From positions 1 through 64,000 of the forward strand of contig JAUCBJ010001006.1 in NCBI GenBank assembly GCA_032718475.1: a stretch of DNA of 64,000 bases, given 5' to 3'. Under the pieces are notes generated by a model, which searched no databases, was not told where the DNA came from, and saw only the letters and a list, made by a program, of their open reading frames with translations. The position numbers and the translations under genes are program-made. The first letter of the stretch is position 1. Each line of letters starts with the position of its first letter. The stretch comes from Nemertoderma westbladi (lineage: Eukaryota > Animalia > Xenacoelomorpha). Of this stretch, positions 33,284 to 61,176 are shown piece by piece.

Positions 33284-33851
33284 TGTTAGCGAATCAATTC
33301 CGCTAACACCCCACAAAGTTGGGCCAGCGAGGCCTCTAAGCAATATTGGGAGCACGAGGTTGATTACCAATACCAACCTCGTGTCACCCCAACAAAGTGG
33401 GAAGGAGAAACACACACACAATAGGGGTCAGGGGTTACACCCCTGAAAGAAAGGAGAGTAACAGCAGCGGGGGGGGGGGGGGGGAAACACCACCGCAGGG
33501 CAGAGGGTGTGAAGTAGGTTACTAGCCAATGGGGGGAAGGCATCGGCTGAGTAGTATTATGCGGCCAACCGTGCAATATATACTACCAGCTCTGTATCAT
33601 TTATTCACTCTTAGTTAGTCAGTTAGTTAGGGTGGTACGAGAACTCTTAACACCGTCCCCGTCCACTGCTATCAGCCTATCTCATTCAGTGCATTACCGG
33701 TACTTATTCACCTGTGCTTATTTCCATCTTATCTATATATCTATACATACACGGATCAACATCAGAACTCTTTCAGCCTTTTCACATACACGGCAGGGAC
33801 GTGTAGTCAAGATAACCGGATAAATCGGGATCCTCAGTGGATCCCGTCACA
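33284..33851 (+). repeat. 5' LTR of A
   Basis: TGTTAG...TCACA, near-identical to 43317-43828. Confidence 0.93.
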
Positions 33852-33895
33852 GTGTTAAGAACCAACAGCCCAAGCTGACTGCCAAAGACTGAAAG

Positions 33896-36800
33896 ATGAG
33901 TCAAGAGAAAAGAGAGACGACACCGCCGCGGACCCCGGACGACAACCTAACGATCCGCGAGGCCACGGCGAGATGGTATCGATCCACGATGCCGGATTCG
34001 TCGACACCAGGTGATCCGACAACCAAAGAGGAGGGGGGCCGTCTACAGCGAGAAGACGAGTTGAGGGAAAGGAGAGATGAGTTGAGAGGGGAAAAAGACG
34101 AGTCGACACACGACGGCGGTCGACGTGCCAATGTTGCCGGCCAGCCACAGGCTGAGGGCAACGGACGGCCCACTGGAACGGCAACGGTGGAGCCGATGGT
34201 ACGACGCCGGACCCGGAGAGATAGAGGAGACATTGGCAACGAGGACGTCGGGGTCAGCAATCGGCTCCGACGAGCCTACGCCGCGACCTGGGAGCAACTG
34301 AAGGAAGCTAGAGGAGGGGCTGAAATAGACCAGGTGGAGTTGAGGAGACGACTAGGTGAGTCAAACAGATACTTTGATTACCTAGTGCGTTCTGGGCAGG
34401 GAGAACTAGCCAGGGAGATAGCGAGAGGGGTTGCCTTCAAACTGTTTGGGCTATGGGAACATAGGGGTATGTGGCCTGGTGTAGTGTACATAGGGCCATA
34501 CTTAGTCGATGCCAGGGAAGTTAAGTTAGTGGGTTGGGTGGGACCGCACGAAGGCGAATCCGAGGTTAGCTCCGAGGATTCGGTCTCGTCGGTCAGCGAG
34601 AACCCCGGAAAGTGGGGGAAAGTTAGTAGGACGGAGGGGCGGCGGGAGTCCGTTGCAACCGATAAGTCTGCTACATCCTCCGCAAAAGAAAGACGGGTGC
34701 GAGAGAGTGAACGCATGGCATATAAATTAAAAATGGAAGAATTAGAGTGGCGACTGAGGGGAAGGAAGGAGCAAGAGAGTGAACGCGAAGAGCGTGAGGC
34801 AAGAGAACAGAGCGTGCGGTACACGTACAGTACGCATAATAGCTGCACGGGCCGAGGGGGTAGTAGTAGTACGTTAGGAAATGTTGGTATTAATAGTACC
34901 GTAGTAGATAACCCTAATCCTTTTATTACAGGAAATATTTTACCTGGTAGTAGTAATTTAAATTTAAATTCAAATAATAATATTAATTCAAATATTCAGA
35001 ATAATCAAAATAATTCAAATAATTTAAATCTAAATACTCAAAATAATTTAAATAATAATCCCGTTTCAAATTCTAATAATTTAATTGATTTAGGGGATTT
35101 AATTGATTTAACAAATAATATTGGGAATGGTGCTATTAATATGAACATGTCGGATGTACATAGCCCGAAGGCGGCCTGGTAGGCCACTTAGTTAGTAGGC
35201 AGGAGGTGGCGGGGTTGAGCCAACCCGACGGCGGCCTGGTAGGCCACGTAGTTGATAGGCAGGAGGTAGCGGGGTTGAGCCAACCCGAGGTGGGCCTGGT
35301 AGGCCACGCAGCAGTAGAGAGAGAGGCAGGGGTGAATAGACCCAGCAGTAGTAGAGAGAGTGCGTCGACTAGAGAGAGGTGTAGAACAGAAGTGAGAGAT
35401 AGTGAAGTTAGATGTGGCGAGTGGGGGGGGGGGGGGGGGCTACGGGCGCCCCACCACATAAGATTAGTGGCGAGAGAGGGGGGGCAGAGAATGCCCCACA
35501 AGAGGGGTGTAGAAGTGAAGTGAGAGGTGATGAAGTTAGAAGTAGCGGGTGGGGGGGGGGGGCTACAGGAGCCCCACCACGAAAGATTAGTGGCGAGAGA
35601 AGGGGGGTAGAAAATGTCCGACAAGAGGGACGCGGAAGTGTAGTAAGAGATAGTGAGGTTAGAAGTGGCGGGTGGGGAGGGGGGGCTACGGGCGCCCCAC
35701 CACGAGAAATTAGTAGCGAGAGGGGGGGGGGGCAGAGAATGTCCCACAGGCGTCGGCAGATAATGCGCGGGCCGAATTAGGTAAACCGCAACACCCGGCG
35801 ATGGAGAATAATAGGGGGATTGCGAGTATCCCCAGCGGTGTGCGATCGAGCAGAGAGAGACAGGTTGACGTCGCGAGAGGGCGGGCGACGGAACGTCGAG
35901 CCCAGTCAGAAGAGAGAAGATTAGTAGAGTTTAACAGAGAGGTCGAAGATAGAAGAAGATTAGTAGAGTTTAATAGAGAGGTCGAAGATAGAAGAAGATT
36001 AGTAGAGTTTAATAGAGTGGTCGAAGATAGAAGAAGATTTGTAGAGTTTAACCAAGAGGTCGAAGAGAGGCAAAGAGAAGAGAATAATAGAAGAGTCGTT
36101 GCTAGGAGCAACCGGAGAGCGAGGACGGATAGCAAGCCGTCGATAGTAGAGATGGAGTTAGGGAGCCAGTGGGGTCAAACTTCGGGAGATTGCCGTCGCC
36201 CTGGAGAAACGTACCGCACACCAAGAGTGGGGTACAGGATGTACCGATACGAAGAAGAGAACAGGAGTGGGGATCAAAGAGAAGCTTCCCGACGGGATAT
36301 AGCTGCCGATCGAGAGTACGGTAGTTGCGGGGAGATTCGAGATTTGCGAAGAATAAACTTCGGTTCGGAAGGGCACATGCAGACTGCAGGACATACTGTA
36401 GGCCTTACTGCACGTACTATTATAGGCCATGCTGGGAGAGATAGAGTAGGCAATAAGGTAGCGCGAACAACGGGATTAAACCCGGAAGCCGCGTGGTACA
36501 TACCGGTAGGTATGCGAGAAGTAGATATGCCTATATCGGTACCAGTACAGCAGCATGACTATAATACACAAGGACATTACATATACCCAGGGGAGGGGGG
36601 AATTATTGCGGATAGGTGCATGGGCCCCAATATATTAACATCAAACCCAGTACCAAACATACCGGCGGGGGGGGGACAGGGTGACATTCCCCCATCACAA
36701 TATCAACAATATACCCCAATAGGAGCAAGAACATCGAACCCCTTGGACGAGAATAGGTTGTGCGGACAGTCGCTACCACACGCGGCCATACAGGGGACTG

Positions 36801-37813: not shown

Positions 37814-38039
37814 TTGAAGTTTAGTCGTCCAATATTTTGGACTGAGGGGGGTGGGAATGAGGGCGAGACGCCCTTCTCACACAAATAATTATTTAATTTA
37901 AATAAATAATAAAAATTATTATATAATTAAATATAAGAAAGTAATAGTTAGAAGAGATAGTAAGTAGTAGTCAGAAGATAAGTTAGTAGAGAGTTAAGTT
38001 AGAAGGCGGCGGGGTAAGGGAGTGTGGCATATTATCATG

Positions 38040-38285
38040 CCACGAGTAGTAGAAGGGGTGTTGTGGGCACCGTAAGCGCCACGTAGATGGAGGTAGCAGA
38101 GAGTGGTTGTGGGCACCGCAAGCGTCATGTAGATAGAGCTAGAGGAAGTAGAGAGTTAGTAGAGCTAGAGGAAGTAGAGAGTTAGTAGAGCTAGAGGAAG
38201 TAGAGAGTTAGTAGAGTTAGAGATGGTAGAGAGTTGGTAAGAGTTAGAGATAGTTAGTAGAAGTAGAATTAGAATTAGAGAGTTA
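38040..38285 (+). repeat. Purine-rich tandem repeats of the A 3' region (continue at 42693-42960)
   Basis: AGAGTTAGTAGAGCTAGAGGAAGT units and repeated GTGGTTGTGGGCACCGCAAGCG. Confidence 0.8.
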
Positions 38286-41200
38286 CTTACTTACTATACT
38301 TAGTGACTATTATAAAAAATTATTATAAAAAAAAGGAATACCTGAACTGTACTGCTGTACTGACTACTGCCTTGACAACTGTCAGACTTTGTGGCGCCAA
38401 ATTATATATTTCTGATTGTGTTGCCTCTATATTCGAGTGAACGCGTCACTGCAGTCGGCGTTTTGATGGCAGCTTGTTGTGGCTGCAATGGACGGTTCGG
38501 GCGCTGCAAGAAATGTATATGCATCAGGAATAGCTTGCGGTGCTTATCGTGTGCCCCAGGAAGAAACGGTAATTGCGAGAACAGCCAGCACCCTTCCTCT
38601 CAACCTCTACCGGATCGCCACAAACGACCTTCGTTCTCCCAGACGTCAGTCTCACAGCCGCTTAACTCTTGCGCTGCTTTGGAAAGTCCAGCAAACGATA
38701 CATTGATGGATCAGGACGAAACTATACTGGGTGGATCCCCGATTGTCCAGGATACTCCTCTAGCTGCCAGTGCGTCAGCATCATTGAACTCTCCAGTTTG
38801 GTCTCCGGGCGCAGCACGAGCGAGGGCCAGTGCAATCATATCTAGGATTCGGAGCCCTGGTACAGGGTCTGCTTTGGGGTCAGCAGTTAAAGACGTTATA
38901 CTTCAGACCCCGAACTATTCAGATCCCCGAGCAGTCAAGTCCGTTCCTTCAGCAGTCCAGTCCGGTTCCCCTTCAGTCCAGTCGGGTCCCCTGCAGTCCA
39001 GTCGGTGCGCCCAGCAGTCCAGTCGGGTCCCCCATCAGTCCATTTGGTGCGCCCAGAATTCCAGTCAGGTCACCCATCAGTCCAGTCGGGTCCCCCATAT
39101 GTCCAGTCCAGTCGGATCGCCCAGCAGTCCCAGTTGGTTCCCCATCAGTCCAATCGGGTCCCCCAGCAGATCAGTTGGGTCTCCCATCAGACCAGTCGGA
39201 TCCCTCAGGAGTCCAGTCAGGTCCCCCAGCAGTCCAGTCGGGTCACCCATCAGACCAGTCGGGTCCCTCAGGAGTCCAGTTGGGTCCCCCAGCAGTCCAG
39301 TCGGGTCCCCCTTCAGACCAGTCGGGTCCCCCATCAGTCCAGTTGGGTCCCCCTTCAGACCAGTCGGGTCCTCAGGAGTCCAGTCGGGTCCCCCGGCAGT
39401 CCAGTCAGGTCTCCCATCAGACCAGTTGGGTCCCTCAGGAGTCCAGTCGGGTCCCCCAGCAGTCCAGTCGGGTCTCCCTTCAGAACAGTTGGGTCCCCCT
39501 TCAGTCCGGTTGGGTCCCCCAGCAATCCAGCCGGGTCCCCCACCAGTCCAGTTGGCACCATCGGCATCTATCGGTCGACCTCTGCCATCCTCCCTGTGCA
39601 ATGTTGGACTCACTTCAACAAAGTGTCAGCCCCCTACAGTCGCGGGTCAGTCGTCCATCCCAACTCATACTGTATCTTGATGTAATACAACTCTACCAGT
39701 CCAGGAGATCTCTAGTTCTGTGGAGAAGGTGTACAGCACCATCGTACACTGGAGACCCAACCTATTTTTAGTTCCTATGGGCGCTGGAGGTAGAGAGTTG
39801 GTCTCCGAGTATACACGGCTGGTTAAACTGTTTACATCAGGATCAGAGTTACAGGAGATCGCCCTTTATGCACTGATGTGCATACCAGCGCTCCTGTTAC
39901 AGAAACCCAGTAGGTCATCCAACGCAGCGACCCACAGGAAGATTCTGGAACGTCGTCTGTGTGATTGGCGGGCTGGTCGATTCCTACAGCTGTTGGTGGA
40001 AGCGAGAGCCATCAAAAAACACCTTCCAACGTCCCGGGTAAAGAAATCAGATACAGAGGCGATCCGGAAGGCGTTTGTACGCCACATGCTGACTGGGAAC
40101 GTGTCAGCGGCCACCCGTTGTCTCTCCGATATCAACAAAGGTAGTCCCATGAAACTGTCAGACACCTTTGTTGATAAGAATGGGGCTACCCGACGGGTGA
40201 GGGACGTTCTGCTGGAGAAACACCCGCCAGCCGCCCCAGCTGACAGTTCAGTGCTCCTGACGGAGTGGGATGGAGCGCCAGAACACCATAACGTCGTGTT
40301 CGAGCGGCTAGATGGCTCCCTCATCCTATCGAGTCTTTTCCGGATGAGAGGTAACGGTGCTAGTCCTTCTGGGTTGGATGTCCAGGGGTGGAAGCACATC
40401 CTGACCAAGTTCCGCCAACAATCCATTGACCTGTGTGGTGCCATAGCCGACATGGCGAAACGGATTAGTCAGGATGTGCTGCTCTCTGGCGTGATGTCGG
40501 CGCTCCTCTCCTGTCGGCTGTTGGCGCTCGATAAGTGCCCCGGAGTTCGTCCGATCGGCATTGGCGAGGTTCTACGGAGGGTTATCGGGAAGGCGGCGAT
40601 GCGGTGCATCACAGAGGATCTTCAGAGCGTTGGTGGGTCGACTCAGCTGTGTATGGGCCAGAAAGCTGGCATAGAATATGCCATACACAGTCTGAACGAG
40701 ACATTCTCAGAGGACGACTGCGAGGCCGTCCTCCAGATCTACGCCACCAACGCATTCAACTCGCTGAACCGCGACGCCGCCATCCATAACATCCGCCACG
40801 TCTGTCCCTCCCTTCACACCATCGTAACAAACTGTTACAGCGAACCAACGCGACTGTTTGTAGGGGGGGAGACTATCTACTCCAGGGAGGGGTCGACCCA
40901 GGGGGACCCGGCTGCGATGCCAATGTTCTCCGCTGGGACACGGCCATTGCTATCGGAGATCGCTGCCGCCTGCGTGGTGAACCAGAAATGGTTTGCCGAT
41001 GACGGCAAGCGGCGGGTGCCCTCAGGGAACTAAGGAAGATTTGGGACGTGGTGGTAATGCGTGGTCCGCTGTACGGGTACTACCCGTCCAAGTGCCACCT
41101 GACGGTGAAGTTGGAGAAACTGGCGGAAGCAGAGGAGATATTTGCGGGAACCGGGATCGTCATCTCCGCGGGGGGGAACAAACTCCTAGGCTGTGTGGTG

Positions 41201-42692
41201 GGGTCTGCCTAGTACCACCAGGCCTACATCACCTCCAAGGTCGAGGAGTTCGTCGCAGAGGTAGACCGACTCGGCGACATCGCCAGCATCGACCCCCACT
41301 GCGCCTACTCTAACCTGGCGCTGGGGTTGTCCTGTCGCTGGCGGTTCCTTGCGAGGGTGGTCCCAAATGCCGCCCTCCATTTCGATGACCTTGAGGGCGC
41401 AGTTCTGCGATGTCTGTGCAAGATCGCCGACCACCCTTCGATCCCAGACAACGAACGCCAGCTCCTCTCTCTACCCATAAGGAACGGCGGTTTGGGTATC
41501 CCTCTCCCCTCAGACCTCACCAACCAGTTTGCAAACTCCTGCCGGGTCTTCGAACCGCTAGAGGGGGCGACAGCCGAGACCATGTCAGACGTCAGGGAGG
41601 ATCAGAACCCTATCACTAATCTGATAAAGGCTGAATCCTTCGTGGCGTCTAAGACCAAAACAACAGAATGTCATGGTCGGCTGTCGGAGTCCCAACAGAA
41701 TCTGAGGGAGCTGGTGTCGGAGAAGGGGGCTTCAGCTTGGTTGAACTCAAAACCGGTCACCCTTCACAAAACTCACCTGTCTAAGGAAGAGTTCCGCGAC
41801 GCTCTGTGTCTGTGCTACGGCTGGCAACCGAAGTCGCTCCCTTCTCGTTGTGTCTGTGGGGAACGATTTTCCCCTTCACACGTCCTGTTGTGCCCCACCG
41901 GGGGTTATCCCTCGATAAGGCACAGCAAGATACGCGATTTCGTTGCCGACGCACTAACCGAAGTAACCCACAACGTTGCAGTAGAGCCAACACTCCAGCC
42001 TTTAACAGGTGAGGAGTTCACCCACAGATCCACCTCCACAGAAGATCAGGCGAGGTTGGACGTCTCTGTCAGCGGGTTCTGGGGTGGCCGGTTTGAGAAG
42101 ACTTACTTTGACGTCTCGGTCTACAACCCTCTAGCGGCCACCAACGCAGCCATGACTGCCGAGGGCGCTTATTCCCACCACGAGGCGCGGAAACGCCTGA
42201 AGTACGAGGAGCGCATCCGAGAGGTCGAACTGTCGTCGTTTGTGCCTCTGTTACTTTCAGCCTTTGGTGGTACTGCGCCAGCGATGCAACAGTTCGTTAA
42301 GCGTTTATTGCTTAAACTCTCGGATCGTCGCGACCTCAGCTACTCTGAGTGTATCTGCTGGACGCGGAGGAAGATAAGCTTCGCGCTTCTCCACTCCAGT
42401 TTGATGTGTCTCCGTGGAGCGAGATCCGCCACCAAACGCCCCGTTTATCATCAGGTGTCAGCAGACTCGATTTGCCTGACTAACGCTGATACCAACACCG
42501 GCTAGACTGACTGTCAGTGGTAGTCATAGGCCTCTAAACAGGCCCTTCTTTCTTTATTTATTTTTTTTTTTTTATTATCGGTATCGGTGTAGGAATTATT
42601 TATTTTGTTCTATTAATAAAGTGCCTGTAAAAGAGTTATGCTGATATTGTGCAAATTATATAATAAACTAGTAAGTTAAAAAAAAAAAAAAA
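38286..42692 (+). mobile_element. CRE-like non-LTR retrotransposon with a restriction-like endonuclease (RLE), frameshifted
   Basis: Cys-rich N-terminus, RT (RPIGIGE, NAFN, QGDP, FADD), C-terminal CxC..H..C finger and RLE (RLDV..FDV..E..KRLKY), polyA tail at 42678-42692, possible TSD TAGAGAGTTA. Confidence 0.88.
38930..39555 (+). repeat. 21-bp-based tandem repeat in the CRE-like element
   Basis: About 28 variants of CAGTCCAGTCGGGTCCCCCAG, mostly open in several frames. Confidence 0.9.
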
Positions 42693-43316
42693 GTAGAGAG
42701 TTAGTAGCAGAGTAGTAGTAGTAGTAGAGTGGTTGTGGGGACCGCAAGCGCCACGTAGATAGAGGTAGTGAGCAGAGTGGTTCTGGGCACCGCAAAAGAA
42801 AGAAAGTAGTAAGTAGGGTTAGAGTTAGTAGAGAGTTAGAGGGTTTTAGTTAGACTTAGTAGAGCTAGTTAGAGTCGGAGAGTTAGTAGAGAGTAAGAGA
42901 GTTAGATAGTTAGCAAGTAAGTAGTAGGTAGATAGTATGATAGCACAGGGGTAGCATTAGAGATTAGGGCCTTAGGGAGTGGCAGAGAGTAGAGATGAGA
43001 TAGTGAAAGGAGTTGTTGGCGAGAGAGAAGAGTGCGATTCAGGTGTGGGGAGAGGGTAAGAGCGAGTTGAGTGAAAGAGCGGAGTTAGAGTGGCGAGAGT
43101 GTTGGGGAAACAAAAATTGTGTGAGAGAAGCGCACAATCGGCCCGACATGAGACGCCAGAGGGTAGTGACATCATACCCATAGGGAGCGGCCTGGAAAGC
43201 CGACTCCAAGAAAAATAACTCCACCCCAAACCCGATAATAGATCGAGTTCCAGCGGAATTGAAGCGCACTAGTGGTTGATGCTATCTTCTCACCAGGAAG
43301 ATAGCATGGGGGGGAG

Positions 43317-43828
43317 TGTTAGCGAATCAATTCCGCTAACACCCCACAAAGTTGGGCCAGCGAGGCCTCTAAGCAATATTGGGAGCACGAGGTTGATTAC
43401 CAATACCAACCTCGTGTCACCCCAACAAAGTGGGAAGGAGAAACACACACACAATAAGGGTCAAGGGTTACACCCCTGAAAGAGAGGAGAGTAACAGCAG
43501 CGGGGGGGAAACACCACTGCAGGGCAGAGGGTGTGAAGTAGGTTACTATCCAATGGGGGGAAGGCATCGGCTGAGTAGTATTATGCGGCCAACCGTGCAA
43601 TATATACTACCAGCTCTGTATTATTTATTCACTCTTAGTTAGTCAGTTAGTTAGGGTGTTACGGGAACTCTTAACACCGTCCCCGTCCACTGCTATCAGC
43701 CTATCTCATTCAGTGCATTACCGGTACTTATTCACCTGTGCTTATTTCCATCTTATCTATATATCTATACATACACGGATCAACATCAGAACTCTTTCAG
43801 CCTTTTCACATACACGGCGGGGACTGTG
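43317..43828 (+). repeat. 3' LTR of A with ~50 bp missing from the end
   Basis: Matches the 5' LTR up to CACGGCGGGGAC, then diverges. Confidence 0.9.
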
Positions 43829-43846
43829 TTCCACTTTGGAAAGAAG

Positions 43847-44403
43847 TGTGACGGGATCCAGGAAGGATCCCGGTTTATCCGGTTGTTTAGTTCACGCGTC
43901 CCCGCCGTGCGTATGAAAGGTAAAAAGGGTTCGTGTCATTCGTCGTATATAATAATCGGTTGTACGGATATATAGATATAGGGTATATAGATATAGGTAT
44001 GAATAATGTTGTCGTATACGGAAGGCGGGATACGGTAATTAAAGTCCCGGTCCTTCCCTAGCTAAACTAACTAACCTAACTAGCACCAATATGATACTGA
44101 GATAACTGAACTGAAATGATTACTGCCAACTGGCTATATTGCACGGGTGGCCTAATTACTCTACCTAATCGATGCCTTTCCCCCCCTCTGATTGGTTGAT
44201 ACCCTTGTTGGCGCCCTTTGGAGTGTTCCCGTTCACTCCACCTGTTCTCTCTGGGTTAGGGGTTTGGCCCCTGACCCTCATTGTGTTTCTCCTTCCCATT
44301 TTGTTGGGGTGACACGAGTTGGTGATTACCCAATCTCGCGGCCCCCAATATTGCTTATCGGCTTAACTTTTATGGGGTGTTAGCGGGATTGGATAAGCTA
44401 ACA
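43847..44403 (-). repeat. 3' LTR of B
   Basis: TG...CA termini, near-identical to 60614-61176. Confidence 0.95.
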
Positions 44404-45199
44404 CTCCCCCCCATGCTATCTTCCCGGTGAGAAGATAGCATCCACCTTAAGTGCTCTACAAACCCGCTGGATCCCGATCTAGTATCGGGTGTGGGGTGGA
44501 ATTCTTTTTTTTTCTCGGAGCCGGCTTTCCAGGCCGCTCCCTATGGGTATGATAACGCTACCCTGTATGCCTGGCGTCCCATGTCGGGCCGATCGCGCTC
44601 ACCTCTCACGCGACGTTTGTTTCCCCAACACTTTCGCCCTATCTCTTCTCCACCCTCACTCTAACTCTCGTATACCCTTGGACCTCCTCGTCCCTCACTC
44701 AGCCTCTTATTCTCCGCCCCCACACTAGAATTGCGTCCGCACTCTCTCCGCACTTCGCTCCATTACTCCGTCCCTCAACCCCACATCGACTACCTCATCC
44801 CTTCTGACGAATCTCCCCCCCTTTTTGTGCCGTTGCACTCAAGAAGTGTGAAATCGTCTGGTGTCTCGTCCATAGTGCCATAGTCAGTTATCCCCCCAGT
44901 CCCAGTAGCTAATTGAGAAAGGTTGCATGACTATAGTACTTACTCCGAACGTATATTTTTATTGCTAAACTACTGATTACTACGTACGTACATATAATTG
45001 CACTTATTTTAATTATTTGCATCAGCTTAGTTCGTACTTAATAGTTCGTATGTCCCACGCGGCGCCTTCCAGGCGTACCACGTCCAGGTTTCAGTTTCTC
45101 TCCCCCGGCCCTGGGAACCTATCTGTTCCTCTGGAGATAGTTCCCCCTGGCGTCTTCTTCCCTGGGTCATTTCTTGGTTACCACCGCTCCTCTGGGATC

Positions 45200-47663: not shown

Positions 47664-48097
47664 TCCGAACACTCACTCGCTCACCTGTAAGGTGGTGCCT
47701 TACCAAGGCACAATACAGATGAGTGATGTATCTAAGATGTTCTGTACGGTCCGATAATGGCCTATTCTTTAGTTAATTGCGCCCTTTTAGCCTAAATTAT
47801 TACTAATTAATTCTGAAGCTAGTAAATACACCTTAATTTCGATTTCTGTCAGTTACTTTTATTATGTTCCAGAATAACTTTCCTAATGTTGCCATTATTT
47901 GTAACTTTCAGCCCTATTCTATTTATTTTTATCTATCTATCTATCTATTTTTGGTTTAATTTTAATTCTACTGTCCTACTACTTACTATTGCCTATGGAT
48001 TATTCTATTCTCTAATCCACATTCTGGCCTACTCTGTGGGCCTGTGCAGTACAGCAGTATGCGTCGCGTGGCCACACGATTTACCCAGCTGTACTCA

Positions 48098-48460: not shown

Positions 48461-48602
48461 TCTGCCTACTAACTGCGTACCTACTATGTACCATTATTTT
48501 TATTTTTATTTTTTATTTTTTATTTGTGTGGGAAGGGCGTCTCGCCCTCAATCCCACCCCCTCAGTCCAAAGCTTGGACGACTAAACACTTCTCTAACTC
48601 CA

Positions 48603-51600
48603 CTAAGGTGCCCCTTCTAGCAGACAGCATTTCCCTACAGCTCTCCTGTAGGTTTTTCTGTCCTTCGCACCTATCTTACCACCTATCCGCACTTCTACTG
48701 ATCGGACTCTTCCGTCCTCGTCGGAGTAAGTGCCTACAACTCTCGCCAACCGCCATTGGTTGTTGATGATAGTATCATCCGTAACGATTACGAGATCTCC
48801 CTCTCTTAACTCCCTATTCGGCTTCCTCCACTTGCTTCTTTTATGGAGCGTGGGCAGATATTCTTCGACCCACCTCCTCCAATACTCGGCACTTATTGCT
48901 TTAGCGACTTTCCAACTCTGGCGGGAGTGTATGTCGTCTGGATCTACACCCCGCATATTGATGGTTGCTGGCCTTTCCATTAGAAAATGGCTAGGCGTCA
49001 GCACGTCTAGTGATTCAGGGTCATCATTCTCCGGATATAGCGGTCTGCTATTAATGATCCCCTCGCACTTTGCAAGCACTGTCCGTAAGACGTCCTCAGT
49101 GACCATGTGGGTGTTCATGAGCTTTGTCATTAGACGCTTTGAACTGCCCACCAGTCTCTCGACGCATCCTAGTGTATGTGGTGCATACGGCGTCCTTCTC
49201 TCCCACTTTACTTGTCGTCGTCTCATGGCCGCCCTGACTTCCTCCCCTTCCAAGATGTCCAAGGCCTCTGCCATCTTATTCTCTGCGCCCACAAAGTTGG
49301 TGCCGTTGTCGCTGTATATCACTGCGATCGTCCCACCTTTGCGGTCTCTAAACCTTTCTAAGGCATTAATGAATGCTGATGCGGTTGCATCTTGGGCGAG
49401 TTCTATCCCTACCGCCCGCGTGTTGTTACATACGAAGATGATACCGTAGCGTTTCTCCGTGTGCCGCATCACCTTGATCTTTATCGGCCCGAACATGTCC
49501 ACACCGCAATGTGTAAATGGCGGGTCGTGCTGTCTTACTCTACTTGCTGGTAGTGGCGCCATCTCTTGTATGGCTCGCTCCTTCTTCGCTCGTCGGCAGG
49601 TTTGGCACTGCCCCACTACCGTTTTTACTTTCTTCCTCAACTGTTTGACCCAAAATGTCCTCCTTATCTCTGTGAGAGTTCTGTTGGTGCCCCCGTGCAA
49701 TATCGACTTGTGGGAGTCCCAGATTATCTGGTTAACTATTGGCGATCCTGTTGGAATGATGATGGGTTTCGGTGGTACAATTATGCTGTTGTTGTATCCC
49801 ACCCTAGAATTCATTACTAGAATCCCGTCGTCATTAAGTTGTGGCAACAGCGTGATCAGCTCGCTGTCCCATCGGAGGTGCTGTTGGTTACCGACGCGTT
49901 CCACCTCGTCACCATAGTTCTTCCGTTGTTCATAGCGGATGACTGCCTTGGCTGCTCCTTCCAGATCTATGGATGTCCTGATCTTCTTGTTTTTGCCGAC
50001 TCCCGCGAGGAAATTCCCGAAGGCTCTCCAGTACGCCACTAAGTTCTTGGTCTTATACCAACTAGAACTGTAGCTGAGGAGTTTATCCGTCGGGTTATCG
50101 CATAGTTCTTGCTTTGGTTGAACCTCCCTAATCTCCCTCACCATCTGGGAGTATATCTCTTCTCCCTCTGAATCTCCTTATTCTCCCTCTGACACCACTT
50201 CCGAGCCCGGGTCCACCTTTCTCATCGGCAGCCAGGCCTCCTTATCGCTCAGAAATTGTGGCCCATGTTGCCACAATACTTCCTTCTTCAAGAAAGTGTG
50301 GCGTACCACGCCCCTCGACAACAAATCCGCTGGGTTCTCGTCTGTTGGGCAGTAGTGACACCTTTCCAGTTCTGTGGTTGCCCTTATTTCGTCCACTCTA
50401 TTTGCGACGAATATCGGGTATCTCGTCCTTTCGTTATGTAGCCAACCAAGCACTACCATGGAGTCCGTCCAGTAGTGTGTCTCCACTATGTTGGGAATAG
50501 TATCCACTAGGTAGGCTGTGGCTCTAACTCCTAGTCTCGCAGCTGTCAACTCCAACTTGGGAACTGATGCTGAATCTGGCGGCGTCGACTTTGCTTTGCT
50601 AAAGGCTAGTCTGGGCTTTTGAGCCCCCTCTCGTTGTACTAAATAGAGTGCCGCTCCGTACGCCTCCAACAACGCATCGGAGAACATGTGTAGGTCCAGA
50701 TTCGTCATGTTCCCATCCAGAAAATACACTCGTGGCATGTTGTATATACCCATCTTCTCCAAGTCTTCTGTCCACTTACTCCACTGTTTCTTAATTTCCT
50801 CTGGTACCTCTACGTCCCACTCATCCTTCAATTTGTATACTCTCTTGAGTATCTGTTTCCCCGTGACTAATAATGGGGATGCTAGGCCTAGGGGATCGTA
50901 TATTCTTGCTATATACAATACATAGCCCCTCTTCGTGTGGATGTCTGCGCCCTCCTGGCTCAGCTGATACTTCAGTTCGTCCGTCTCTCTGTTCCACACG
51001 ATTCCCAATGCCTTCTGTTGGGATTCTGTTCTCTTGTTCGCCATGTCCTGCCCTTTGGCTGTTGTGGGATTATCCATGGTCGATTATGGTCTCTTGTCCT
51101 CTATCGCCTTGATAAATTCTTCCGAACTGGATTGGAATTTGGTCAGGTTAAAGCCGGATCCTTTTAGGATGTCGCAAACCTCGCGCCCTGTGTCCAGTAT
51201 CTCCTTAACCGTATTTCCAGACTCCATTCCGTCATCTACGTAGAAGCCGCGTCGAATCATATCGATGGCCCTAGTGCTGTATCTATCTTCCTTCCCTTTC
51301 ACTGTATCTCTCACTGCCATAGTCGTCGTAAATGAAGACGACTTGGCTCCCATATTTTGTACTACCATCTTATATGCCAGTATTATCGACGGTTCTTCCT
51401 CGCCGTTATACCATAAGAAGCATTGACTGTCGCTATCTTCCTCCGTTACACGGACTTGGTTGAACATGCCTTCTATGTCACACGTAAAGGCGTGCTTCCC
51501 ATTCCTAAATCTAAGTAGGACCTCTATGCCCGAGTTGTATATGTTTGGGCCTTCTAACAGATAGTCGTTTAAGCATTTCCCGTTGGTCTTTGCCGATGCG

Positions 51601-53867
51601 TCAACTACCATCCGCAGTTTACCTTTCTTTGGGTCTAAAGCCACGTGGAGTGGCAGGTAATATGTCCTGTCCATGTTCCGTTCGTCGACCGCTAACTCCA
51701 CGGCCCATCCTTTCTCGACGTACTTCTTAATCGTTTTGTGGATGTACTCATTCTTCTCGGGGCTCCGTTTTAGTGTTTTTTTCAGCTTGCGGAGTCTTGT
51801 GAGTACCATCCCTCTGTTATCGGGCAGCGGTATCTTCGGTAGTTTCCATACCATTCCTATAGTATACCACCCCTCATCGCATGTCATCAATTCCTCCACG
51901 CTTTGTAAAGCCTGCTTGTCTTCTACCGAGGTTCCGACCCCGGTCTCTTTCAGTCCCTCGAAATATTGTCTGAGCAATCTTTTAAGCTGCTCCTCTGCTC
52001 CCTCATCACCCATTTCCTGCATTGTTCCCGCGAACATGCATCCTGATGTCTCCGACATCCTAAATGGTATCTTGGTCTTAATTGGGCCACTCAGCGTCCA
52101 TCCGAATGGCGTTAATATCGCCACCCGGTCACACTGCTTGTCTTCGCCGCAGACCGTTTGCATTCTTTCATGGGCCGTTGGGCAATCCATTCCTACTATG
52201 ATGGATACCTTCCTAACGTCCACGTCTGGGATTGAGAAGTCAATGTCGTCCAGGAATTTATATTGCTCGACCTCGATGTTGGTTGGCCGCCTGGCATTGA
52301 TATTAATTGACTCTATCACTTGGATGGGGTCGATGGTTGCCCCATAGTCGCATTCCGGTGCCACTGCTGCAATTGCGCACCGGCCTGTTCTCATCTCCAG
52401 GATCTCATCTTTGCTAGAGATGGTTGTTACCGCCATTCTGCTTGGCCTCGTTCTCAATCCTATCTCTTCGGCCACCCATTCCTTCACTAATGTGAAGGCA
52501 GCTCCACTATCAACCAGCATTAGTGTTGTTACTGATCGATTGCCTTCCCCGATCACTCGCACGGGTACTACTCCAAGTAACACCGTTCCTCTCTTCTTCG
52601 CCCCTACTGTGCTCGTTGCCATCGTTTGGCCTCTCCTTTGACCGAACTTTACCGGCTTCTCCTTGCATTCCCTAGCTCTATGTCCACTCATCACACATCG
52701 CGAACAGATTTTATTGCTCAACGCATAATCTATCTGATCTTGCCTAGGTAGCGCCTGCCAGTACCTGCAGTTCATGGTCTGATGAAGTGCATTTGCGTGT
52801 AGCTGGCATCTGCTCTTTGGGTCGTAGCCCTCCTTATGCAGCGCATTGCGTATCGCAGCTGCGTTTGTATCAAAGTCCCTACTGTTTTTATTGTTTGGAT
52901 TCGGCCTACTGGACGTACTGGGGTTATATTTATTTGTGTTGTTATTGTTCCCCTGTCCGTTCCATGCTGTGGTCTTAGTTTCGGCTATCTGTGGACTTGT
53001 AGTCCCCTGCGTTGTTGCATATGGCAATGATTGCCTGAGTCTCGGTAATGCGTTTGATGTATTATGCTCTGGTTTCGGTCTATGGTAATCCGTCTTCGGT
53101 TCCTTTCCCAGGCTATCTTCGCTATAGACTGGGTCAGTTATTAGTTCAGCCTCGTAGTTTAAGAAGCTTGACATTTCTTCTAAACCCGGTTCCGCACCCT
53201 TCTTGTCTCGAGTGGAGAAAGCGATCTTCCTCCACTTGTTGCGCAGCCAGTTCGGTAGTGCCTGCGCTATCGTGGTGATGTTACTGGACGCGTTGAGCTC
53301 GTATGGCGCGTCTAGCATCTTCAGCACGATTAGCGCCTTTTCGACTTTGTTAGCGAACGTCTTGATGCTAACGGGATTATCCTGTAGGCCACCCGATGTT
53401 ATGCCTCTCAGTGTCTGCCTGATGATCTTGGCCGGGTGCCCGTATTCCCTATCCAGTGCCCGCCATGCTGTCGTGAAGCCGCCCTCTATTCCTTGATATT
53501 GCCTCACGATATTGTATGCTGGGCCTCCCGTGTATACTTGCAGATACTTTAGGCACTCCGCCTGCGTCAAGTTTTTTGTTAGTATTTCGTTACTATACAT
53601 GCGCCGAAACTGTAGATATTCTTCCGGCCTACTCCCATCGAACTTGAATGGTTCCACGGGTGGTAACTCGATCCTCGTTTTCAACGCATCGATCAACGTG
53701 GCCATCCCCATCGCCTGTGCTTCCAATGGGTTCGATGGATGTTGTATAGTTTCTCCTGTCTGGTGCGGTCCGTCTGTCCCATTTCCACCTCTCCTTTGAC
53801 TTGGATATGTCATCGGGGGTAGCGGCCCCCTCCATATTTCTGTGTCGCACGACCTATTTTCATCCAA
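48603..53867 (-). pseudogene. B gag (capsid, NC) and pol (PR, RT, RH, IN) with only two in-frame stops
   Basis: ORFs 51084..53867, 50178..51077 and 48603..50144 share one frame. Motifs PFKFDG, LVDSGA, FYVDD, MFSDA, VDMFGP, SDNGTNF, VERLV. Confidence 0.93.
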
Positions 53868-55405
53868 GGGTCTCGTTGTTCTTGCTCCTATCGGGGTATA
53901 TTGTTGATATTGTGATGGGGGAATGTCACCCTGTCCCCCCCCCCCCCCCCCCCCCCACCGGTATGTTTGGTACTGGGGTTGATGTTAATATGTTTGGGCC
54001 CATACACCTATCCGCAATAATTCCCCCCTCCCCTGGGTATATGTTATGTCCCTGCATGCTGTAGTCATACTGCTGTACTGGTACCGGTATAGGCCTATCA
54101 GCTTCTGGCCTACTCGCCGGTATGTATTCCGCGACTTCCGGGTTTAATCCCGTCGTCCGCGCTATCCCATTGCCTACATTGCCTCTATCAGTATGGCCTA
54201 TGGTATGTGCAGTAAGGCCTACAGTATGTCCTACAGTCTGCATGTGTCGCTCGGGATCGAAGTTTATTCTTCTCGAGTAGTCCTCCCCGCGGCTACCGCA
54301 TTCTCGATCCCTAGGTATATTCCGTCGGAAAGTTTCTCTTCGACCCCCCCCCCCCCCCCCCCTCTACTGTTCTCGTCTTCGTACCGGTACATCGCGTACC
54401 CCTCCATCGGCGCGTAATGCGCCTCACCAGGTCGCATCTCTCCGGGGCGACGGCAATCTCCCGGAGTCCGACCCCACTGACTCTCTGTTCTCATCTCGAC
54501 TACCGACGGCTCGCTATCCGTCCTCGCTCTTCTATCGTTCGCGGCAATACTTCTACTACTGTCTTCTCTTCTTCTCCTTTCAGTGGAGTATTCCCGTTTG
54601 TGAGATCTCTCGTCGACCTCCCGGTTAAACCCCACCGTTCTTCTTCCCTCTTCTGATCGGGCTCGACGCTTCGTCCACCCTCTTACAACGTCAACCTGTC
54701 TCTCTCTGCTCGGTCGCACTCCGCTGGGGATACTCGAAATCCCCCTATTGCTTTCCGTCGCCGGGTGTTGCGGTTTACCTATTTCGGCCCGCGCATTATC
54801 TGCTGACGGCTGTGGGACACTCTCTGCCCCCCCCCCCCCCCTTTCGCCGCTAACTCGCTGTTGTGGGGCCCCTGTAGCCCCCCCCCCACTCGCCACATCT
54901 AACTTCGCTATCTCTCACCCCGCTACCACATCCCTCTCCAGTCGACACATCAACCCTGCCGCAGTTGGGTCTATTCACCCCCGCCTCTCCCTCTGCTATT
55001 GCGTGGCCTACCAGGCCCTCTACTCCCTGCCTACCAACTACGTGGCCTACCAGGCCCTCACTGGGTCTACCCAACCCAGCCACTCCCTGCCTACCAATTA
55101 CGTGGCCTACCAGGCCCTCTCTGGGTTGGCTCAACCCCGTCTGCTCCGGCCTACCAATTACGTGGCCTACCAGGCCCTCTCTGGGTCTACCCAACCCAGC
55201 CACTCCCTCCCTACCGACTACGTGGCCTACCAGGCCCTCTCCTGCCTGGCCATACACGCCCGACGTGTTCACGCCAACAGCACTCATATTGGAAACGGAA
55301 TTAAATTGTTCGTTTGAAACAAAATCATTTGAATTATTTTGTAAATTTGGGCTTGGATCATTACTTAAATTATTTGAATTATTTTGTAAATTCGGGCTTG
55401 GATCA

Positions 55406-58400
55406 TTCTATTCTATTTCATTTCCGGCTTCTGGCCCCGGTGGCTATTAATTAGCATTAATATTAAAATAGGGATAAAATGTGAACAATACACAAATGCA
55501 TAATATAGTACGATAAAATATAAGTTGTAGAAATAATAGTCATAATAAGAAATTAAGTAAAAATTGTTATATCCATGTACTATGCAATGCGTAGTTAATC
55601 ATTGAAAACGATATGGTGCGGATATGTCGTTTATTTTACATATATATATTCTTTTTTTTTACACGCTCGTGGGACATTTCATTTCAGTCAATAAAGTACT
55701 GGAAGTTGTTGTTACAGGACTTCTCTCTATTCCCTCTCCCCTCAAAAAAGTCGTTATTGCAGCATGTTTGATTTGAAAGCTTGCATGGCTGTTCAAAATG
55801 GAATAACAATACATGGCCTGGAATTCATCTTTAAATGGTGTTGTTGTTTCACTGCTCAAAGTTCTTTGTCTTGCGCCTTTGATGACGGCTTTTATGTTAA
55901 ACAGGGTCGATGCTAGGTTTGTTAGAGATGGTAGATCTTCCTTCCATGCCAATAGACTGTACTCAGACATGTATGTATTATCTCGCGTTCTCGCTGTATG
56001 ATGTGCTAGTATTGTTGAGAATAAGTGTAATACTTTAGTATTATGGCTATTTAATATGTTGTATGTGACCCGACATTTGTTGTATGCTACTATTTGTTGA
56101 ACAGTTTCACTGTCGAAGAGCTTCCATAAGACATTGTTAGATATGTAATTACTAACTCCAAGTATTGTGCGCATGGCTTTTCGGATTGTTCTATCTAGGG
56201 GTCTCAATAGGGCAATCCCTATAGTTGAAGATCCATAAAAAATTGATGGGAGACATACAATTTTCCATATGAGAGATGTAACGTTTAGTGGGACATCATA
56301 GGACGAAAGTGCTTTTGATTTTGTTTGGGAAACATTTATCCAGCACTTTTTCGTGAAGTGGTCTCGTAGGTTGGATGGGGTAGATGGTAAGGGTAGCCCC
56401 AAATATTTAAGTTTTGCCTCTTGTATTAGGTTTTTCCCAGGTTCAACTTGAATTGATTCTTGATTTCCTGTCGGTTGTGAAGAGGCAACAATGTAATGGG
56501 ATTTGTGTATGTTCAAGCATAATCCATTATTCTTGAAATAGTTGGTGCACAGACGTAGTATTCTGATGAGGTCAGATTTTAAATTGGCCAATATTAATAT
56601 GTCATCTGCAAAACTAAAGGCTGGGTAGGACTCATCTGCAACATGTAGGCCCAGTTTGGCAGTATCTAGGGATGCAAATAGGTCTGCTAAGTAAAAATTA
56701 AAAAGCCAACCAGAGAGTACTCCACCTTGGCGTATGCCACGATGGAGTGGTATCATCTTCGTATGGATGAGGTTTCCAATCTTTATTGAGGCTTTTGATT
56801 TGCTGTAATAGGAGGATAACAAAGCGATCAGTTGTGGACTCAGGTTTGTTTCTTCGAGTTTGCTGAACATAACATTGTGTTTAATGGTATCAAAAGCGGC
56901 CGATAGATCGAGTGATACGACATGGACTGGTGATGACTCTTTGTTGAAAAATTCAATGAGTTTGCTTGCTGTTAGATATGGTACTTCACTGTGCATCCCA
57001 TGTTTATATGCCATTTGCAGGTGGCTTTGTTTAATTGGTTTTAGTTCCTCAATGATTGTGTGCTCCCAAAGTTTGACAAAGATAGATATTATTGATATTC
57101 CTCTGTAGCTTGAAACTTGATCCTTTTGTTTGTCATAACCTTTAAGTTGTGGTAGGAGTATGCTTTGGCACATTTCTTCAGGGAAATAAGAATGAGATCG
57201 CATTCCGTTATATAGTGTTGCAATGAAATTGCATAATGACTCAGAGCTTCCATAGTGCAGATGTTCGGCTTTGATGTTGTTTCTATCCGCAGCTTTACGT
57301 TTGTTTAATTTCGATATTGCCATTGCAATATCGTTTCCTGTTAGAAACTTATAGTTTTTGTAATCTTTCTGAGGGACAGTGACTGTCTTATGTGTGGTGT
57401 TTTCATTTTCACACCTTTCGAAAAAACGTTCATAATGGTTGTATAGATTTGTCCTATTTGCTTGTGTCATATGTCTATTTCCGTCCTGATTAGTCCGTAG
57501 CTGATGCCAAAACTTGTTAGGGTTAGACTCACAAGCATTTGCTAGGTTAATTATCTGGTGCTTGTATGCTTTGTGTTCTTGGTACGCTTTGTATCTTCGT
57601 TGCTTCAGTTGTGATAGGTCATTTTTGGCCTGATTAGTAGCTCCATCTGTTTGGTAGTGATCATTATTAAATTTAACTGGACTCCTTGTTCTGAGGGCAT
57701 GTTTCCATTTTTTCCTCTTACGTGGCACAATATTTGGTATATATTTATCAGCAGCTGCTGAAAGTGTGCTAATCATACTTGACACCATGTTGTCTAGAGT
57801 ACAGTTGTCTAGTTGTGGGTTATTCATGGCTTCACGAGTTAGTGTTTTAAATTTGGACTCTATTTCCTGCTTGTAGTCTTCGATTTGAGAAGTTGAGGCT
57901 GTATCAAAAAGGTGTACTTTCTTCGCTACTTGTTTCTTCCAACTATGACCTGTAGTTGCATTGTCCGTTTTAGTCATCGAGAAGGTGGTCATTACTGGTG
58001 TGTGATCTGATAGATTGTTACTATCTTGAATGAAAATATGTGTATTGCTGTTTGATATCAGAGAGTTTTCGCTTATGATGTAGTCAATTAAAGTTGTTCT
58101 TTTGATTAGGCCATCCCTTGATTTGAAGTGGTAGCTTGTATCTGCTCCAGTTGTTGAGTAACGAGTACTAGTTATTTCCATATCAAAAGGCTTCATAATA
58201 TGCTCCTTAAACAGCTGGCCAAAGTTGGATCTTATTATGTTGCTTATTGAATCTTTTTTTGGTTGCAGCTGGCCATTTATATCACCTGCAATAATCACTG
58301 TTTCATTGTTATTGGTTGACTCCTCCAACAGGCTATGTAATTTTCCACACTCTTCTAAGTATAAGGTCCGAGATTGTTCTTCTTTTGTATCTGATGGCAT

Positions 58401-58752
58401 GTATAGGCCAAGAACTGTGAGGTCAGATGTGGATAATCCTTTTATGTTTATACCAGCGATTCTGTCAGACATTGTTTTTCTCACAGATGTGTATGGTGCG
58501 AGAGTTGTTTTAATAAAGATTGCGACGCCCCCTTCCCCTCGAACTCTCTGTTTTTGTTCAAACATTCCTTCGGATATAGTATAGCTTATGCAGCTGTACC
58601 CTTTTTGGATCCTTGCCATTTGAAAGTGAAACTTTGCTTCTCCAGCGCTGAGCCAGTGTTCCTCTATGACTAGGATGTCTGGTGTGTGGTGTTTTAGAAT
58701 GGAGTTTGTGTATGTCTTGTTGTGCATATATCCTTTGCAGTTTTTCCTTTGC
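55406..58752 (-). mobile_element. 5'-truncated RTEX-like LINE in B gag
   Basis: (TAGAA)n tail. A ~28-bp flank ATTATTTTGTAAATTCGGG.TTGGATCA occurs on both sides, within a host repeat. Confidence 0.85.
55659..58752 (-). CDS. Uninterrupted LINE ORF2 (APE-RT)
   Basis: Motifs EEHW, GGVA, GDIN, IDY, SDH, LDLSAAFD, GIRQG, FADD, KYLG. Confidence 0.9.
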
Positions 58753-60613
58753 ATTATTTTGTAAATTCGGGGTTGGATCAATACTTAAATTATTTGAATT
58801 ATTATTATTTTCTAAATTTAAATTATTATTTGGATTATTTTGCACGTTCAAATTGAAATTATTATTTGTATTTAAATTTAAATTACTGCTACTAGGTAAA
58901 GTATTATTTGCTGCAATAGAGGGATTAGGGTTATCCAATACGGTACTATTAATATTAACGACGTCTACTGTAGCGTTATTATTACCCCCCCCCCCCCCCC
59001 CCCCCCGCCCGTACGGTCACACCAGTCTTGGGTCTGTCGTGCGGTCCCTGTAAGTGGGGTATTAATAAATTTATCCACAGCCCCTGGCTCCTCGAAAATA
59101 GTCGAGCCTGCCCCACTCTCAGACGCCCCCATTCGCGCCAGTTCCCGCTCACGCGTATGTATAGCTTTATACCCTCTAAGCTCACCTTGACGTTTCTCTA
59201 GCTCTCATCGCTTATACTCCTTTCTTGCCATTCTCTCCCTACACTCCCGTGCGTCCCGCTCGGCCAATTCCAACTCTCTTCTAGCCCCCTCCCTTCGTCT
59301 CGCCTCATGCTCTCTGCGTTCGTTTTCCTCTCTCACCTTGCGTTCCCTACGTTCCGCCTCATGCTCTTCTTGTTCCTTCCTCCCTACTTCCTCACACTCC
59401 CTAAGGCTTCTTGCGGCCCTTTCGGCCCTCTCTCCGGTTTCCTTAATTAACGCCATTTCCCTCTCTAGCAGCACTCTCCCCTCCTCTAACCGTCTATCTA
59501 CTTCCCTTTGACCTTGCTCTATTAAATCGAGTTGGTACGTGGCATTTATCTCTCTCACCTGTCTTCCTTTCGCGGAGGATGTAGCAGACTTATCGGTTCC
59601 GACGGATTCCCTCCGCCTTCCCGACCTACTGACTTTCCCCCGCCTCCCGGAACTTCCTCCGACCGATGAGGCCGAATCCTCGGGGTTAACCTCGGATTCG
59701 CCCTCCTCAGGTCTCTCCCAACCCACTAATTTTAGTCCCCGGGCATCGACTAAGTATGGCCCTACGTACACTACGCTAGGTTCCATACCCCTACACCGCC
59801 ACAAGTCATACAGTTGCTCGGCAACCCCTCTCGCTCTCTCCTTTGCCAGTTCTCTTTGCCCGAAGCGCATTAGATAATTAAAGTGTTTATTCGACTCACC
59901 TAGTCGTTTTCTCAGTCTCACTTCGTCTATCTTCGCCCCCTCTTTGGCCTCCTTTAGCAGTTTCTGGGTCGCGTTGTTAGCCCGTCGAAGTCGATCAGAA
60001 ACCCCGACGTCCTCGTCGCCGACCTCTCTTCCGTCTCTCCGGGTCCGACGTCGTACCGGCGGCCCCACCGTCGCCGTTTCGGTGGGCCGTTCGTCGCCCT
60101 TGGCCTGTAGCTGACCTGCGACATCGGTACCAACATCTCCTCCGTCTCTCCGCGTCCGGCGTCGTACCGTCGGCCCACCGTCGCCGTTTCGGTGGGCCGC
60201 TCGTCGCCCTCGGCCTGTAGCTGGCCGGCGACATCGGCACGTTGACCCACGTCCCGTGTCGACTTGTCTCCTTCTCCCTCCGTCTCGCTCTCTCCTCCTC
60301 TCGGCTCGACCTCGGGTTCCAGGCGGCCCCCCTCATCCTGAACTGCCGGGTGACCCGTTATCGATGGGTCCGGCGTTGTGGGCCTGTACCGTCTGGTTGC
60401 GGCCTCACGGATCGTTAACTCTTCGTCCAGGGTCCGCGTCGGCGTCGTCTCTCCCGACTGACTCATCTCGCTTGGTGATTGGTGGCTGGTAGTTTAGCTA
60501 GCTAGGGCGGCAGCTCTGAGTTTAATTACTACCGAAGGGTTTAATTACTGTCAGGGTAGCTGCTAGGTTTTAATTACTTAGTCTAGCTAGGGCGGCAGCT
60601 CGGATTTAATTAC

Positions 60614-61176
60614 TGTGACGGGATCCAGGAAGGATCCCGGTTTATCCGGTTGTTTAGTTCACGCGTCCCCGCCGTGCGTATGAGAGGTAAAAAGGGTTTG
60701 TGTCGTTCGTCGTATATAATAATCGGTTGTACGGATATATAGATATAGGGTATATAGATATAGGTATGAATAATGTTGTCGTATACGGAAGGCGGGATAC
60801 GGTAATTAAAGTCCCGGTCCTTCCCTAGCTAAACTAACTAACCTAACTAGCACCAATATGATACTGAGATAACTGAACTGAAATGATTACTGCCAACTGG
60901 CTATATTGCACGGGTGGCCTAATTACTCTACCTAATCGATGCCTTTCCCCCCCCCCCCCCTCTGATTGGTTGATACCCTTGTTGGCGCCCTTTGGAGTGT
61001 TCCCGTTCACTCCACCTGTTCTCTCTGGGTTGGGGTTTGGCCCCTGACCCTCATTGTGTTTCTCCTTCCCATTTTGTTGGGGTGACACGAGTTGGTGATT
61101 ACCCAATCTCGCGGCCCCCAATATTGCTTATCGGCTTAACTTTTATGGGGTGTTAGCGGGATTGGATAAACTAACA
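60614..61176 (-). repeat. 5' LTR of B
   Basis: TG...CA termini, flanked by the TSD. Confidence 0.95.

Follow-up and report, generated by a model that had tools for sequence, protein, structure and literature searches.

The window considered here, a stretch of 64,000 nucleotides (nt) from contig JAUCBJ010001006.1 of Nemertoderma westbladi, contains two related long terminal repeat (LTR) retrotransposons, A on the forward and B on the reverse strand, which are arranged tail to tail. Both share an unusual feature: their primer binding site (PBS) lacks the TGG of a tRNA-type site and is complementary to a stretch of the element's own LTR.

A and B are BEL/Pao elements (Belpaoviridae). For B this follows from its DUF1759, aspartyl protease, Peptidase_A17, integrase and DUF5641 domains (2e-11 for DUF1759, 6e-38 for Peptidase_A17 and 2e-24 for DUF5641), and both the type of the Gag-Pol domains and their order, protease, reverse transcriptase, RNase H and integrase, are those of the family. 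The gag and protease of A match those of B, while most of its pol has been lost. TG...CA LTRs, a short target-site duplication and a polypurine tract are all found in B, whereas the 3' end of A is deleted; where present, the polypurine tract adjoins the 3' LTR without spacer. The tRNA-type PBS expected of the family is missing from both elements, and the assignment was kept nonetheless. Membership in the Tf1/sushi group, which has the polyprotein of Ty3/gypsy chromoviruses, was rejected since the domains are of the BEL/Pao type.

The LTR pair of B shows 4 mismatches in 556 positions and is flanked by a CTTCT duplication. Consequently its boundaries are fixed independently, and the PBS, which lacks a TGG, follows the LTR with no spacer (0 nt). 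The LTRs of A differ at 9 of 508 positions, and its LTR end was placed via homology with B, since its 3' LTR (43317-43824) is shortened. Between the LTRs of A and B, 31% of 511 aligned positions differ. Each element carries one inserted non-LTR element.

Pairing between LTR and PBS

In both elements the first nine nucleotides past the LTR are the exact complement of a 9-mer in the element's own LTR (Table 1). The LTR 9-mers of A and B are homologous in the LTR alignment and differ at positions 2, 4, 6 and 7, so that four of nine pairs are changed on both sides, all of them Watson-Crick. An earlier reading of this DNA, made from the sequence only, had reported these features, and they were recovered here: all four 9-mers lie where it had placed them, the LTR alignment bears out their homology, the four compensated differences and the CGT that follows, and no TGG was found past either LTR. 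It had furthermore claimed that pairing ends exactly at the LTR terminus, which the independent boundaries confirm for B, while for A the end depends on the homology with B.

Dinucleotide-preserving shuffles of the LTR, 20000 for each element, produced the exact 9-mer 69 times for A and 125 times for B, and within 600 nt past the LTR of A, position 1 alone has a 9-nt complement in the LTR. If the PBS of B had evolved independently at LTR-level divergence, it would be an exact complement with a probability of 2e-5, or 1e-4 if conditioned on exactly four changes. The duplex of the 9-mers alone is predicted at -9.5 kcal/mol in A and -5.0 kcal/mol in B, and it drops to -0.3 and -1.3 kcal/mol once the 9-mers are exchanged between the two elements. 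Thus A and B both possess what characterizes Tf1-type elements, a PBS complementary to the own LTR with the 3' end of the match toward the LTR edge. That the geometry places this 3' end exactly at the edge supports a role as primer.

Predicted fold around the PBS

The 9-bp duplex is accompanied by a second helix, here called the clamp, in which the 25-40 nt that precede the 9-mer, with their TTAG/TCAG repeats, pair with the leader directly past the PBS. The clamp of A comprises about 25 pairs (mean pairing probability p 0.81). Without the 9-mer it is predicted at -25.0 kcal/mol in A (5 of 2000 shuffles) and -36.2 kcal/mol in B (0 of 2000), and the full 5' segment together with the leader reaches -32.6 and -41.6 kcal/mol, respectively (0 of 2000 shuffles each). 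Read by eye, the clamps of A and B differ by one more two-sided change and by an extra base pair that is itself paired.

According to the folding model, the 9-bp duplex forms well only with the clamp. In A its p is 0.82-0.97 if the RNA starts at or before 33613 and 0.00-0.20 with later starts, while B reaches 0.44-0.45 with and 0.08-0.30 without the clamp. An RNA starting at the 9-mer itself is predicted to pair poorly (p 0.00-0.30). TATA-like and initiator-like motifs are signals of transcription start; they lie upstream of the 9-mer in A (Table 1), and weaker versions are found in B at 60908 and 60881-60876. AATAAA is absent; GATAAA is shared by A and B (33819 and 60646).

The leader of B holds three further copies of its PBS 9-mer, starting at 60577, 60548 and 60529 (60521-60577, reverse strand). 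Between 60577 and 60500 of the same strand, the clamp arm recurs once and one of the PBS 9-mer copies follows a CTGACA that resembles the LTR end. These extra copies possibly reflect slippage at plus-strand transfer.

Self-complementary PBSs in public BEL/Pao loci

A scan by integrase alignment yielded 79 metagenome loci. The LTR end could be placed in 29 of them, the other 50 being unscored; ends were set by eye after viewing the sequence, and a second LTR confirms those of L004, L018, L036, L071 and L076. Among the 19 loci without TGG, 14 hold an exact self-complement of 10-16 nt (L001, L018, L019, L031, L035, L041, L045, L046, L048, L058, L060, L072, L076 and L077; 13 families, as L076 and L077 are near-copies). 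Three of the matches are contiguous and 11 run across the junction of a GT..AG intron within the LTR. At most 3 of 200 shuffles matched 11 of the 14, the exceptions being L019, L035 and L045 with 26, 7 and 41. These shuffles ran under a splice rule that was relaxed after a blind scan without fixed LTR ends (33 loci, 25 shuffles), in which seven loci showed at least 10 nt at no more than 3 of 25 shuffles, while others were missed because of its stricter splice rules. The five non-TGG loci without a match have just 1-107 nt of upstream LTR in their contig. None of the 10 TGG loci has a self-complement longer than 7 nt, a thin control given that 7 of the 10 have at most 112 nt upstream.

The 14 loci resemble A and B in several ways. 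Their PBS is of the non-TGG type and mostly starts with GT, and 12 of the 14 matched stretches have AC as their end, with 7 of the 14 reading AC/CG (the slash marking the predicted cut), as those of A and B do. Where measurable, the match lies 23-222 nt before the LTR end. In contrast to A and B, the match is 10-16 nt long, is built via an intron junction in 11 of 14 and is offset from the LTR by 0-5 nt. For A and B, too, a primer formed across a splice junction was considered, and it was rejected since their matches are contiguous with no AG directly before. Compared to the integrase of B, those of the 14 loci are only 31-40% identical, and no protein more than about 43% identical was found among the best 120 matches listed. 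A search with the LTR-end pattern gave no match in viral or metagenome contigs.

L018 has two LTR copies (1-326 and 6690-7103). Precisely where the primer matches, the acceptor end of the intron is present in one copy and the joined form in the other. In addition, strong splice-donor motifs were seen in the LTRs of L014 (5340-5740) and in the 3' LTR pieces of L015, L039 and L064, which are likely to represent more junction-type families. A and B are not alone in this trait, which marks a broad branch of BEL/Pao.

Phylogeny

A tree was computed from 1025 columns of reverse transcriptase, RNase H and integrase in a quick search with Shimodaira-Hasegawa-like branch tests (SH-aLRT), leaving out 11 of 37 rows as near-copies or unlabelled. 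The 13 families with a self-complementary PBS, in the following the self-type, form one side of a 98% branch. B and the distant BEL/Pao element D of the same window lie on the self-type side of a 99% branch, with all eight retained TGG loci on the other. If D, L071 and L045 are removed, B falls outside the TGG group (93%) and outside the self-type core as well. A single origin of the self-type loci and B appears plausible. In a tree of the integrase only, one protein each of Schistosoma, a fish and a crinoid is found among the self-type loci, and there are hints, from a tree without reference elements, that these loci are near the Sinbad/Suzu side of BEL/Pao. The TGG label is uncertain for L016, which falls within the self-type clade in the FastTree result and whose contig lacks the upstream LTR. 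Element C of the window groups with the TGG loci.

Variation in the B-like family

Variation was read from assembled contigs of this organism, in tables that cannot link LTR and PBS variants per molecule. One set gave 877, 513, 24 and 0 contigs aligned to the leaders of A and B, a second set 588, 335, 332 and 34; the count of 0 stems from one presumed RNA run and says nothing on expression. The variant table covers the B-like family in four runs (three samples), and among the 40 of its 46 rows seen there is no variant in the stem arms of the hairpin or in 60787-60805. The single listed variant of the 9-mer is A to G at position 5, at 71%, 81%, 84% and 100% of depth. A loose-end row (7 contigs, agreement 0.58) has C at PBS position 5, which is the compensating letter. 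The G of the LTR and the C of the PBS are not linked on one contig and such a G would pair with U too, so a third covarying state at this position is weakly indicated.

Other features of the window

Past its integrase, B contains an extra frame of 463 residues that is absent from A and from the 79 relative loci. Its ESM Atlas features suggest a 3'-5' exonuclease (PF01612), with 24 of 30 matches at 0.92 and, in addition, 30 of 30 named matches at 0.93-0.94 for residues 95-330, whereas no Pfam, homologue or PDB match was obtained and the structure model was unusable (predicted local distance difference test, pLDDT, 32). The frame likely encodes a 3'-5' exonuclease-like domain, an assignment to be taken as a lead only. 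That its product trims RNA ends seems rather improbable to us.

Of the other elements in the window, D (reverse strand, 29216-33283 and 61182-64000) is split by the insertions of A and B. E (reverse strand, 8150-8390) is the remnant of a third A/B-like family of which the 3' untranslated end and the LTR start are left. C (forward strand, 11450-23600) is a BEL/Pao element with an inserted non-LTR element, and its 5' LTR was not found. F (reverse strand, 9270-9480) is related to D and has a putative LTR end at 9318 followed by GT. It shows a 6-nt self-match ending AC/CG and a 16-bp hairpin (p 0.98) in the layout of A and B. However, F was rejected as a third case of self-priming, since its match is not above chance (147 of 200 and 532 of 2000 shuffles) and a second LTR is lacking.

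The non-LTR element within A (forward strand, 38259-42717) gave a weak reverse transcriptase match, and its C-terminal region resembles a restriction-like endonuclease. Upstream of the polypurine tract, A and D both have GAGGGTAG and an ATAGG(G)AGCGG motif (43159-43190 and 29017-28985); the latter motif is also found in B (44545), though in Pol B and D share just about 30% identity. D/F-like pieces contain, at 8761, 24685, 24894, 28774 and 63107, a recurring 16-nt motif that includes a small hairpin, GGTAGGCTCGC.AGCC, both inside and outside reading frames. Three unrelated arrays of 21-nt repeats lie in reading frames (38915-39618, 12198-12512 and 27871-28032).

Table 1. Features of elements A and B within the 64,000-nt window.
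Feature	Position	Strand	Remarks
A 5' LTR	33284-33851	+	TG...CA, 568 bp
A TATA-like TATATA (33577) and initiator-like TCACTC (33605)	33577-33611	+	predicted start near 33607
A clamp, 5' arm	33608-33636	+	TTAG/TCAG repeats
A LTR 9-mer TCTTAACAC	33645-33653	+	predicted 3' end of self-primer; followed by CGT
A 8-bp hairpin	33826-33846	+	5 nt before LTR end; p 0.97-0.99
A PBS GTGTTAAGA	33852-33860	+	no TGG; adjoins LTR
A clamp, 3' arm	33861-33895	+	in leader
A polypurine tract and shortened 3' LTR	43308-43824	+	tract adjoins 3' LTR
B 5' LTR and CTTCT duplication	60614-61181	-	LTR 61176-60614
B clamp, 5' arm	60823-60837	-	
B LTR 9-mer TTTAATTAC	60810-60802	-	predicted 3' end of self-primer; followed by CGT
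B arm starting with CGT	60791-60801	-	directly past predicted cut; pairs with 60673-60664, p 0.89-0.97
B 8-bp hairpin	60619-60639	-	5 nt before LTR end; from folding, p 0.97-0.99
B PBS GTAATTAAA	60613-60605	-	no TGG; adjoins LTR
B clamp, 3' arm	60578-60592	-	15 bp, p 1.00
Non-LTR element inside B	55325-58803	-	inserted
B gag-pol	48603-53984	-	three frames interrupted by stops; DUF1759, aspartyl protease, Peptidase_A17, integrase, DUF5641
B extra frame past integrase	46281-47672	-	463 residues; 3'-5' exonuclease-like domain (lead only)
B polypurine tract, 3' LTR and CTTCT duplication	43842-44412	-	tract 44412-44404, 3' LTR 44403-43847

Discussion

The pairing between LTR and PBS in A and B is well above chance, and the best reading of the sequences is a form of self-priming that differs from that of Tf1. 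We put at about 0.6 the probability that reverse transcription of A and B is primed by a piece of the element's transcript and not by a tRNA. Transcription would start about 25-65 nt upstream of the 9-mer, and the 5' stretch of the RNA would clamp onto the leader and thereby seat the 9-mer on the PBS, beside the hairpin that precedes the end of the LTR. On the model of Tf1, the RNase H of the element would then cut at AC/CG, which might free a primer of roughly 35-75 nt with its last 9 nt facing the LTR edge. Its 3'-OH would be extended into the LTR, the copied 188-198 nt would jump to the 3' LTR, and plus-strand synthesis would finally copy the primer end back into the PBS. Such copying is described for Tf1, where the PBS of the cDNA derives from the primer (PMC11042837). 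Because the primer would be copied into the PBS, changes of the 9-mer would become matched changes of the PBS, which is the covariation seen between A and B. Likewise, if minus-strand DNA stops at the cut and the part upstream is taken from the 3' LTR, this may be why the relatives keep their LTR intron.

Since the duplex appears to need the clamp, the primer would be a longer 5' fragment cut at AC/CG rather than a 5'-terminal 11-mer as in Tf1. The sequence-only reading had cautioned that the 9-mer might lie tens of nt inside the transcript. Folding and the upstream motifs speak for that position, but as an objection the point loses its force, because an internal position is probably the mechanism itself; a 9-mer deep in the transcript does not tell against a clamped internal primer. 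It had also proposed to look for complementarity in sister families, and the outcome was favourable, with 14 of 19 non-TGG relatives being self-complementary. In our judgement it is an even bet that a whole branch of BEL/Pao has given up tRNA priming in favour of an internal stretch of the element's RNA, cut at a conserved AC/CG, put together by splicing in many families and clamped in A and B.

Several points weigh against this interpretation. Sequence, folding and phylogeny are its entire basis. Even with the clamp, the 9-bp duplex of B reaches only p 0.45 in silico, and a helix directly after the cut is predicted for B but not in the 5' LTR of A (p 0.00). Nor is a strong clamp general, as one of 13 relatives reaches 10 of 500 shuffles and none does better. 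For most relatives the end of the LTR was placed by eye, and the later scan used a more relaxed splice rule than the earlier one; under the relaxed scan used for the relatives, A stands out only at 4 of 200 and B at 13 of 200 shuffles. The placement of B is unstable, given its very long branch and a FastTree result that joins it to a TGG locus. In the variant table, the matching PBS change is not listed at 60609, possibly due to alignment clipping. Finally, the comparison with tRNAs covered the window, and its 64 kb contain no tRNA genes.

This last point leaves room for a host RNA such as a tRNA fragment as the primer, with the pairing being structural only, for example a leader switch for packaging, translation or masking of the PBS. 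The 9-mer is indeed part of a larger fold, in which the clamp is stronger than the 9-bp helix. Moreover, the International Committee on Taxonomy of Viruses (ICTV) describes BEL/Pao as tRNA-primed (PMC8742986), and half-tRNA priming exists in copia lineages (PMC6317226). However, the letters of the PBS differ among A, B and 13 other families, each tracking its own LTR, so no shared host RNA explains them, and the conservation across families that half-tRNA priming would call for is not seen. In addition, the pairing never ends more than 5 nt from the LTR edge, and TGG loci are without it, though 7 of 10 had little LTR. We therefore consider a purely structural role unlikely. Mere chance is most improbable and already largely refuted: the window has only two full copies, which have 5 of 9 positions in common, but the covariation has a probability of 2e-5 to 1e-4 and the signature recurs in 13 other families.

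If self-priming is accepted, its form could still be that of Tf1 in the strict sense, with a start at or just before the 9-mer and a 5'-terminal 9-11-mer as primer. The geometry is the same as in Tf1, where the first 11 bases pair with the PBS and are cut off by RNase H (PMC7175516). Yet a start at the 9-mer gives a duplex p of 0.00-0.30, the conserved clamp would lose its 5' arm, the TATA-like and initiator-like motifs sit upstream, and 11 relatives have a match that crosses a splice junction and is hence internal, all of which makes a strict Tf1 type quite unlikely. Alternatively, the partner of the PBS might be the 9-mer of the 3' LTR or of a second RNA, so that the genome is circularised or dimerised or the cut 3' copy supplies the primer. 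Both 3' LTRs do hold an identical copy of their own 9-mer (43669 in A, 44043 in B), indistinguishable from the 5' copy by sequence. The 5' copy, however, is separated from the PBS by only some 190 nt and forms a local fold with it, and cutting the 3' copy would presumably separate the repeat required for strand transfer; we regard this arrangement as highly unlikely. A primer cut from the 5' part of the element's own RNA accordingly remains the reading we prefer.

BEL/Pao is one of the three main superfamilies of animal LTR retrotransposons, and its replication is called 'poorly understood' by the ICTV (PMC8742986). If our proposal is true, self-priming reaches a third superfamily and takes a different form there, with an internal primer that is clamped or spliced, and AC/CG would be one exact candidate for the RNA bond to be cut. 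It would also bear on whether self-priming or tRNA priming came first, a question raised in PMC3601003. PBS-based annotation might fail for such elements for this very reason, and tRNA fragments would presumably not control them. Among the literature listings searched, none reports a self-primed BEL/Pao element, though one may have been mentioned earlier in subscription papers, in Repbase reports or in supplements. The nearest prior claim reportedly comes from a survey of Cer elements in C. elegans, which is said to have proposed a tRNA-like primer encoded by the BEL element Cer7 itself; this would be a different mechanism. A term search within PMC3118150, PMC6238403, PMC8556966, PMC2774666 and PMC554778 gave no mention of a PBS.

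With canonical Belpaoviridae, whose PBS is of the tRNA-Arg or tRNA-Gly type, A and B share Gag DUF1759, protease, reverse transcriptase, Peptidase_A17, integrase, DUF5641, TG..CA LTRs and a 5-bp duplication, but not the 18-nt PBS complementary to a tRNA 3' end that the ICTV describes (PMC8742986). Self-priming itself was shown for Tf1, and for Tj1, Tcn1 and the TAR lineage of copia it is a prediction (PMC4600332, PMC6317226, PMC7175516). The TAR lineage of plant Ty1/copia (Houba, Osr-1) thus extends the prediction beyond the Tf1 group (PMC6317226). In contrast to A, B and their relatives, these are copia elements of plants, and the part of that source at hand mentions neither clamp nor splice junction. 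Tf1/Tf2 of S. pombe, Tj1 of S. japonicus and, more broadly, the Tf1/sushi and Tcn1 groups of Ty3/gypsy likewise have no tRNA site, a PBS that complements their own LTR and a predicted cut leaving a 3'-OH at the LTR edge. While self-priming of Tf1, a Ty3/gypsy element, is experimental, that of A and B is deduced from sequence and belongs to BEL/Pao. Furthermore, the primer of Tf1 is formed by the first 11 nt of its RNA, whereas the match of A and B comprises 9 nt, has a predicted position tens of nt within the RNA and would be held in place by a second helix with the leader.

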